DNA of 64,000 bases from Escherichia coli (lineage in GTDB: Bacteria > Pseudomonadota > Gammaproteobacteria > Enterobacterales > Enterobacteriaceae), in assembly GCF_045037415.1 (NCBI RefSeq), contig NZ_CP173438.1; one strand, 5' to 3'. A program made the position numbers. Numbering within the stretch: position 1 is the first letter of the stretch; every line of letters begins with the position of its first letter. Of this stretch, positions 1-3,000 are shown piece by piece.

Positions 1-3000
1 TTTATTTGTGCAATTTAGTGAATTTGCTTTTTGTTGGCTTTATTTGATGTGTATCACATTTTGTGTGTTATTTTTCTGTGAAAAGAAAGTCCGTAAAAAT
101 GCATTTAGACGATCTTTTATGCTGTAAATTCAATTCACCATGATGTTTTTATCTGAGTGTATTCTTGTTGTTAGAATTTTATTCTGGTTTAATTTTGTTT
201 TGTGGGTTAAAAGATCGTTTAAATCAATATTTACAACATAAAAAACTAAATTTAACTTATTGCGTGAAGAGTATTTCCGGGCCGGAAGCATATATCCAGG
301 GGCCCGACAGAAGGGGGAAACATGGCGCATCATGAAGTCATCAGTCGGTCAGGAAATGCGTTTTTGCTGAATATACGCGAGAGCGTGCTGTTGCTCGGCT
401 CTATGTCTGAAATGCATTTTTTTTACTGATAGGTATTTCTTCTATTCACAGTGACAGGGTCATTCTGGCTATGAAGGACTATCTGGTAGGTGGGCACTCC
501 CGTAAGGAGGTCTGCGAGAAATACCAGATGAATAATGGGTATTTCAGTACAACACTGGGGAGACTTATACGGCTGAATGCTCTTGCAGCAAGGCTTGCAC
601 CTTATTATACAGATGAGTCATCGGCATTTGACTAAATTATGGCATTCCGGAGTTTCTGGAAGATAAAAAAAGAAGCCCTTGTCAGAAAGCAGACAGGTTA
701 TATCAGTATTCTGTCGATAAATAACCTGCCCTGAAAATACGAGAATATTATTTGTATTGATCTGGTTATTAAAGGTAATCGGGTCATTTTAAATTGCCAG
801 ATATCTCTGGTGTGTTCAGTAATGAAAAAGAGGTTGTTATTTATGATTAAGTCGGTTATTGCCGGTGCGGTAGCTATGGCAGTGGTGTCTTTTGGTGTAA
901 ATGCTGCTCTAACTACTCCACAGGGGCAGGGTAGAGTAACCTTTAACGGAACTGTTGTTGATGCTCCATGCAGCATTTCTCAGAAATCAGCTGATCAGTC
1001 TATTGATTTTGGACAGCTTTCAAAAAGCTTCCTTCAAGCAGGAGGCGTATCCAAACCAATGAATTTAGATATTGAATTGGTTAATTGTGATATCACTTCA
1101 TTTAAGGGGGGGGAGGAGTCTCGGCAGCAAAAAAAGGGACTGTGAAGCTGGCTTTTAGTGGTCCAAGGGTTTCTGGTCATAATGAGGAGTTAGATACCAG
1201 CGGGGGGACAGGTACTGCGATTGTAGTTCAGGCTGCAGGTAAAAACGTTTCTTTCGATGGCACAGAAGGTGATGCTAATACCCTGAAAGATGGTGATAAT
1301 GTGCTGCATTATACTGCGATTGTTAAGAAGTCGTCAGCCAATAATGCCCAAGTCACTGAGGGTGCTTTTTCTGCAGTCGCAACCGGTGATGCTGCCAACT
1401 TACTGATTTAGTGTATGATGGTGTTTTTGAGGTGCTCCAGTGGCTTCTGTTTCTATCAGCTGTCCCTCCTGTTCAGCTACTGACGGGGTGGTGCGTAACG
1501 GCAAAAGCACCGCCGGACATCAGCGCTATCTCTGCTCTCACTGCCGTAAAACATGGCAACTGCAGTTCACTTACACCGCTTCTCAACCCGGTACGCACCA
1601 GAAAATCATTGATATGGCCATGAATGGCGTTGGATGCCGGGCAACAGCCCGCATTATGGGCGTTGGCCTCAACACGATTTTACGTCACTTAAAAAACTCA
1701 GGCCGCAGTCGGTAACCTCGCGCATACAGCCGGGCAGTGACGTCATCGTCTGCGCGGAAATGGGCGAACAGTGGGGCTATGTCGGGGCTAAATCGCGCCA
1801 GCGCTGGCTGTTTTACGCGTATGACAGGCTCCGGAAGACGGTTGTTGCGCACGTATTCGGTGAACGCACGATGGCGACGCTGGGGCGTCTTATGAGCCTG
1901 CTGTCACCCTTTGACGTGGTGATATGGATGACGGATGGCTGGCCGCTGTATGAATCCCGCCTGAAGGGAAAGCTGCACGTAATCAGCAAGCGATATACGC
2001 AGCGAATTGAGCGGCATAACCTGAATCTGAGGCAGCACCTGGCACGGCTGGGACGGAAGTCGCTGTCGTTCTCAAAATCGGTGGAGCTGCATGACAAAGT
2101 CATCGGGCATTATCTGAACATAAAACACTATCAATAAGTTGGAGTCATTACCTACAACGTTTATCGACCTCACACGAACAACGATGGTTTACCGCCTTGC
2201 TTACATGAAGAAAAGTGGAAACAGGTTATTCCGGTGTCCTGATTTTGTGAACCACTACAATAATCCTTTTTCACAGACTTGTCAGCAGCCAGCATTTATG
2301 TTCTTTTACCTGCGGGAATTTATCCGTCTGCCTGTCGGGACTACTCTGTCATACAGAAATCAGGTAGGAATAAATTGTAGTGGAAAGTCGATGTTTACCG
2401 GATGACTGATGCGCGCTTGTACACAGACAGTGTGTTTCAGTAATATGGAGAATAATGAAATGAATAACACAGACACATTAGAAAAAATAATCAGACACCA
2501 AAAAAACAAAGACCCCGCATATCCCTTTCGGGAACATTTGTTGATGCAGCTCTGTATTCGCACAAATAAAAGAATGCAGGATAATATATCTGAATTTCTG
2601 GGGGTGTATGGAATAAATCACTCAGCATATATGGTTCTCACCACATTATTCGCAGCGGAGAACCATTGTCTGTCACCTTCAGAGATAAGCCAGAAACTTC
2701 AGTTTACCAGAACTAATATTACCCGCATTACAGATTTTTTAGAAAAAGCCGGATATGTAAAAAGGACGGATAGCAGGGAGGATCGCCGTGCTAAAAAAAT
2801 CAGTCTGACATCTGAAGGTATGTTTTTTATTCAGAGGCTCACTCTTGCACAAAGCATGTATCTGAAAGAAATCTGGGATTATCTGACCCATGATGAACAG
2901 GAACTGTTTGAAGTCATTAATAAAAAGTTACTGGCACATTTTTCTGATGCCAGCTCATAAAGTGCGAAATATCTGAGGATGCTGGATAGCTTCAGGCAAG

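Follow-up and report, generated by a model that had tools for sequence, protein, structure and literature searches.

The orphan papX gene of Escherichia coli ST131 as a probable functional passenger in an IS1-eroded pap locus

We analysed a stretch of 64,000 nucleotides of Escherichia coli DNA (contig NZ_CP173438.1 of assembly GCF_045037415.1), which is referred to here as the window. Its positions 1-8000 show 100% identity to the chromosomes of the ST131 strains EC958 and JJ1886, and at least 80% of these first 8 kb is found, in one place, in 671 of 5,426 complete E. coli genomes. In EC958, these 8 kb form the end of the pheV genomic island closest to pheV, where papI (beyond the window edge) is followed by a PapB fragment, a frameshifted papA, an IS1, papX and a second IS1 in inverted orientation, and then by a small hypothetical gene, a TPR gene and the genes for a P4-type integrase and tRNA-Phe. 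The features of the locus in the window are as follows.

322-635, + strand: papB pseudogene (alignment with the intact papB of strain E57; annotation)
843-1384, + strand: papA pseudogene (annotation; alignment)
1385-2152, + strand: IS1 copy 1, 768 bp, with insA/insB directed at papX
2153-2259, + strand: 3′ end of an IS3-family element, 107 bp, terminating in ...CA (matches to IS3-family ends)
2260-2408, + strand: X-gene leader, 149 bp, common to the pap, foc and sfa loci
2409-2960, + strand: papX ORF, 183 codons as annotated
2961-3411, + strand: non-coding DNA downstream of papX, of the sfa-locus type, 95.9% identical overall
2996-3017, + strand: predicted terminator-like hairpin, 36 nt past the papX stop
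3412-4179, - strand: IS1 copy 2, 768 bp, identical to copy 1 and inverted
4180-4294, + strand: 3′ remnant of a phosphoethanolamine transferase gene, truncated by IS1 copy 2 (ORF list)

A 231-nt hypothetical ORF on the opposite strand (4281-4511) overlaps the end of the transferase stub.

An earlier, sequence-only reading of this stretch had described a PapX-family regulator that remained after the fimbrial structural genes were lost, and the loss is borne out. In papB, 1 bp is missing from the T-run at 417-424 (8 T versus 9 T in the intact gene of strain E57), the frame shifts past about 32 codons, and RefSeq annotates a C-terminal fragment of 54 aa alone (471-635); this homopolymer run could in principle slip in either direction. 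The papA gene carries a frameshift within its variable region and is truncated by IS1 21 nt short of the stop codon, and annotation and alignment revealed no remnant of papH to papG at the locus. The absence of papA-G from EC958 was reported by Totsika et al. (2011), and published virulence-gene tables routinely list papB, papI and papX in ST131 without the structural pap genes.

The papX gene sits on 1,259 bp of DNA between the two IS1 copies, which are inverted with respect to each other and identical over 768 bp. No target-site duplication was found at either IS1, singly or in any pairing; the outer flanks, GCAGTCGCAACC and CAATCTGCTGAC, do not match, and the inner flanks likewise mismatch. 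We considered that papX might be carried by an IS1 composite transposon and rejected this, as neither the direct nor the inversion-corrected pairings show a target duplication. Like other IS1-bracketed segments, the papX segment is inverted in some genomes (SK1144 and MS7163), but unlike a transposed composite transposon it has no shared duplication of 8-9 bp outside its ends. An IS1-bracketed invertible switch was also rejected: the same IS1 end faces the segment on both sides, and inversion therefore leaves the immediate upstream context of papX unchanged.

The 256 bp 5′ of papX consist of the 107-bp IS3-family end followed by the 149-bp X-gene leader. The first 107-110 bases of the inter-IS1 query match the ends of IS3-family transposase genes on many plasmids and chromosomes, and 2153-2259 aligns collinearly and at full identity with the IS3 element, whole or partial, of strains KGu016 and FDAARGOS_536. 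Only from about 2260 onward is there homology to the pap, foc and sfa loci, so that the tail of papG proposed earlier for the DNA upstream of papX had to be replaced by an IS3-family end. From there, homology to the pap1 locus of CFT073 extends to about 3030, over about 770 bp in all, with 91% identity in the leader (2260-2408) and with the hairpin inside the conserved block. Past about 3030 the downstream DNA is unlike that of CFT073 pap1, and 3031-3411 resembles the region after the X gene of the sfa locus. A remnant of sfaY 3′ of papX was rejected, because the X gene of the sfa and foc loci has sfaY on its upstream side and 2961-3411 holds no coding sequence. The block of about 770 bp appears to be a self-contained X cassette, with a leader holding the proximal promoter, the ORF and the terminator-like hairpin.

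The ORF itself is uninterrupted (2409-2960, + strand; 183 aa). Its product contains a winged-helix domain of the MarR type (residues 69-128; Pfam MarR PF01047, E 2e-11), its PDB sequence matches are without exception MarR-family or related winged-helix regulators, and the identical protein in EC958, JJ1886 and Nissle 1917 is named 'HTH-type transcriptional regulator PapX' in RefSeq (WP_001774069.1). Comparison with the PapX/SfaX/FocX proteins confirmed the family assignment made earlier: the protein has the MarR-type winged HTH and the length (~166-183 aa) of this group and is nearly identical to its experimentally characterised members, matching CFT073 PapX at 176 of 183 residues (96%), CFT073 FocX at 94% and the sfa-linked X protein at 94%. 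K54 and R127 are present in the protein and invariant across the five X proteins aligned. Both residues are said to be needed for PapX activity, reportedly from the 2011 work of Reiss and Mobley. The seven substitutions, written from the window residue to that of CFT073 PapX, are A73V, N85S, T120M, D157G, F178L, S179D and A181V; T120 is common to FocX and D157 to the sfa-linked X protein, and in the five-protein alignment A73, N85, F178, S179 and A181 are confined to the IS3-linked lineage. At the nucleotide level the gene differs from CFT073 papX by 5 synonymous and 8 non-synonymous changes, 13 in total, and a crude Nei-Gojobori estimate gives a dN/dS of 0.39, which falls to 0.19 without the variable C-terminal tail.

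The best NCBIfam relative of the protein is MprA (EmrR; NF008122, E 2e-34), a chromosomal MarR-family repressor that also emerged as a motility repressor in the EC958 screen discussed below. Because its score of 118.7 bits lies under the 157-bit equivalog cut-off, the window protein is classed by this profile as a paralogue of MprA and not as MprA itself. EC958 has one papX-like locus in its genome, and papX is the sole X gene of ST131.

The annotated start codon of papX is probably too early. First, no Shine-Dalgarno sequence accompanies the ATG at 2409, whereas GGAG at 2447-2450 stands nine bases before the ATG at 2460 (M18). Second, the numbering of T35, A97 and M103 used by Luterbach and Mobley (2018; PMC6246914) fits a protein of 166 aa that begins at M18. 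Third, the MprA profile alignment begins only at residue 23. For these three reasons, the true start is probably the ATG at 2460, with a product of 166 aa.

How might the operon have been lost around this gene? In Nissle 1917 (ST73) the arrangement is exactly that of the window and the PapX protein is identical, and KGu016 has the identical junction between papA and IS1 in common with both. To the right of this shared IS1, KGu016 retains papE and papF, a papG with a frameshift and, abutting the X gene, an IS3-family element of full length. In FDAARGOS_536, a pig O100:H21 strain and MS7163, the order is IS1, a longer IS3 remnant (~900 bp, of which 792 bp is annotated), papX and IS1, and unrelated genes replace papI, papB and papA. 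The papX unit of MS7163 (extracted locus 5329-8716) is flipped, and its island is located at the other tRNA-Phe, beside dsbD and dicD; the inverted segment and the second tRNA-Phe site point to IS1-IS1 recombination and to movement of the island between tRNA-Phe sites. On the right-hand side, the phosphoethanolamine transferase gene is intact and in the same position beside the TPR gene and the integrase gene in strains E57 and FDAARGOS_1267, and it is unbroken at the matching site in strains with whole pap or sfa loci. The stub at 4180-4294 is the distal border of a second, right-hand deletion.

The gene no longer lies at the 3′ end of a pap/foc/sfa chaperone-usher operon, in that IS1 and the IS3 remnant stand upstream of it and papH-papG are gone. 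We nevertheless assign its descent, by genome comparison, to a pap operon, because papI and the remnants of papB and papA persist and KGu016 represents an intermediate; in contrast, the FocX and SfaX genes follow focY and sfaY in intact operons. A stepwise history of IS1 deletions would be the simplest account of these comparisons. An IS3-family element would first have inserted between papG and papX in an ancestral pap operon of the pheV island. From a position close to the 3′ end of papA, an IS1 would then have deleted stepwise to its right, removing papH-papK first and papE-papG with most of the IS3 element next. Finally, a second, inverted IS1 would have deleted the DNA from 451 bp past papX to the phosphoethanolamine transferase gene. 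The locus resembles known IS1-promoted adjacent deletions in its identical IS1 pair, its lack of target duplications, and its combination of one fixed and one variable junction.

This erosion is still under way. In 5392, an ST131 isolate from the bloodstream, nothing of papX is left beyond base 99, where IS1 copy 2 now adjoins it (extracted locus 6001-6812); Ecol_732 has an IS1 within papX, and BRG214 has a papX without its first 63 bases. The gene is dispensable in at least one clinical isolate, 5392. Two of the 1,802 papX-like places in the survey are plasmid-borne and the remainder are chromosomal.

The 29-bp PapX binding site, the sequence of which reportedly comes from the 2011 work of Reiss and Mobley, matches at 28 of 29 positions on the flhD-upstream strand of EC958. 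The match is centred about 419 bp from the flhD start codon, and no IS is annotated in the spacer between flhD and uspC. The single difference at this site (EC958 35940-35968 in the extracted locus) is a G>A, which could be an operator SNP or an error in the site sequence used for the comparison. The window holds no such site at three or fewer mismatches, and flhDC lies elsewhere on the chromosome.

In a TraDIS screen of hypermotile EC958, Kakkanat et al. (2017) found papX (EC958_3259) among 30 hits, with a logFC of 8.76; other hits included lrhA, ihfAB, clpXP, lrp and ydiV (PMC5425062). Luterbach and Mobley (2018) cite this result as agreeing with the CFT073 data (PMC6246914). The literature examined describes neither a defined papX mutant nor its complementation in EC958, the support in that strain being the TraDIS screen. 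PapX would bind its site upstream of flhD and lower flhDC transcription, and flagellar motility would fall as a result; this mechanism has been demonstrated in CFT073 and is backed for EC958 by the published screen (PMC5425062). The motility repression attributed to the gene in the sequence-only reading thus finds support in EC958, the locus of which is identical over 1-8000. Because papX is a TraDIS hit in EC958, lies at a single, identical locus there and has a 28/29 site upstream of flhD, the orphan gene appears to be expressed and active in ST131 as a motility brake by the mechanism of CFT073 PapX, the basis for EC958 being TraDIS.

Does selection keep papX for this trans-acting brake after the loss of the fimbria, so that deletions spare the gene? 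Selective retention had been proposed earlier, and we consider it rather unlikely. We counted features in 5,426 complete genomes, each scored at 80% query coverage or more, in a survey that used papX as the query and is biased toward loci still carrying it, and in which most of the counted genomes belong to one recently expanded clone. The inter-IS1 papX segment was found in 962 genomes and the junction between IS1 and the transferase stub in 959, and papX is nearly always present where this type of island occurs. Moreover, the gene is functional (PMC5425062), and at least two left-hand end points, leaving IS3 remnants of 107 bp and ~900 bp, and one right-hand end point spare the 770-bp cassette. 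These two or three independent deletion end points would be suggestive of selection, although weakly so.

However, the dead papA and papB remnants persist in about equal numbers of genomes: the junction of papA with IS1 occurs in 666, the whole 8 kb in 671 and the junction of IS1 with the IS3 remnant in 605, while that of the DNA downstream of papX with IS1 occurs in 917. The count for papX is further subject to ascertainment, the gene itself being the query, and papX is truncated or interrupted in the clinical isolates 5392, Ecol_732 and BRG214. In CFT073, a papX mutant had a slight, non-significant defect in colonisation of the mouse kidney (PMC6246914). Because the expansion of the ST131 clade is recent, the intactness of papX tells us little about selection. 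The survival of the gene needs no special selection, and the simplest reading is that of a passenger. We think it very probable that the window holds a working papX allele that is a functional passenger in an IS1-eroded pap locus and acts as a motility brake on its own promoter.

Which promoter does the gene use? In CFT073, 5′ RACE mapped a common proximal start for both papX and focX at an adenosine 144 bp before the ATG, with 19 bp between the -35 and -10 elements, and papX was also co-transcribed with the pap operon (PMC6246914). Counting 144 bp from the M18 ATG in CFT073 leads to an A, upstream of which lie TTGTCA, a 19-bp spacer and TTTTAT. A count from the annotated ATG (the equivalent of 2409) was rejected, because the base reached in CFT073 is a C and not the published adenosine. 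By homology, we infer for the window a -35 element TTGTCA at 2279-2284, a -10 element TTTTAC at 2304-2309 and a start at A2317, all within 2279-2317. This proximal promoter would lie within the retained leader, merely 20 bp from the IS3 remnant.

The -10 element is TTTTAT in CFT073 papX, focX and sfaX and TTTTAC in the window. At 2304-2313, all four IS3-linked loci aligned (ST131, Nissle 1917, KGu016 and FDAARGOS_536) read TTTTACCTGC, whereas CFT073 papX, CFT073 focX and the sfa-linked X gene read TTTTATCTGA at the equivalent positions. The lineage has thus acquired a T>C at the last base of the putative -10 element and an A>C four bases further on, which together may weaken the proximal promoter. 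Even so, the likeliest papX promoter in ST131 would be its own proximal one, with a start at about A2317. Because the leader holds the counterpart of the CFT073 promoter located by 5′ RACE, papX would depend on neither of the two sources of expression suggested earlier, the pap promoter and an outward IS1 promoter.

We also considered that papX might be expressed mainly by external read-through, from the pap promoter pBA, from the insA promoter of IS1 or from a hybrid IS1/IS3 outward promoter. IS1 copy 1 faces papX, the stretch from 1300 to 2996 has no predicted terminator on the + strand, the putative -10 element has lost its final T in the IS3-linked lineage, and the co-transcription of papX with the pap operon in CFT073 (PMC6246914) would fit such an arrangement. 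On the other hand, PapB, the activator of pBA, is frameshifted, and a consensus scan of the + strand found no sigma-70-like site across the IS1 or IS3 junctions. In addition, conservation of the mapped proximal promoter extends over its -35 element, its spacer and its start-site region, and the gene stays intact in the architecture with the longer IS3 remnant and in inverted variants that have other upstream neighbours. Taken together, these points make read-through an unlikely main source of papX transcription, although a contribution from IS1 copy 1 could be added to it. With its own proximal promoter, papX of ST131 would be transcribed in a manner that is now uncoupled from fimbrial phase variation.

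A further possibility is that the X cassette, at about 770 bp, forms an autonomous module, positively selected to outlast the fimbrial operon, a speculation that we consider very unlikely. If it were true, ST131, Nissle 1917 and other lineages would keep a constitutive brake unlinked from fimbrial phase variation, and such a brake on motility would help their colonising success. That papX is an intact but silent relic without present function is hardly credible, since, although the gene is surrounded by pseudogenes in a locus under decay and IS DNA has taken the place of its former upstream context, its TraDIS enrichment in hypermotile EC958 is on a par with that of ihfB, clpP and lrp (PMC5425062).

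The passenger papX of ST131 closely resembles PapX of the CFT073 pap1 operon (Simms and Mobley 2008; Reiss and Mobley 2011; Luterbach and Mobley 2018) in its length, its MarR domain, its K54 and R127 residues, its 149-bp leader, which in CFT073 carries the mapped promoter, its downstream hairpin and the hypermotility that follows its loss. It differs from CFT073 PapX in lacking an adjacent papG and operon, with IS3 and IS1 DNA upstream instead; in its seven substitutions and the two base changes in or near the putative -10 element; and in that ST131 has no FocX partner to repress papX. FocX and SfaX, of the F1C and S fimbrial operons, have the same leader, and FocX is a proven repressor of flhD.

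The presence of papX in ST131, its function in EC958, the remnants of pap and the proposal that such regulators persist for a trans-acting role were all previously published. Our analysis adds the exact anatomy of the locus, the identification of an IS3 remnant in place of papG, the stepwise series of IS1 deletions, the retained putative proximal promoter with its lineage-specific -10 change, and the likely mis-annotation of the start codon. Among multidrug-resistant extraintestinal E. coli, ST131 is the dominant clone, and the control of motility matters for ascent of the urinary tract. The sole X-type motility brake of this clone is a stranded papX gene, most likely on its own promoter, and the action of PapX in ST131 would therefore be untied from the expression of P fimbriae.
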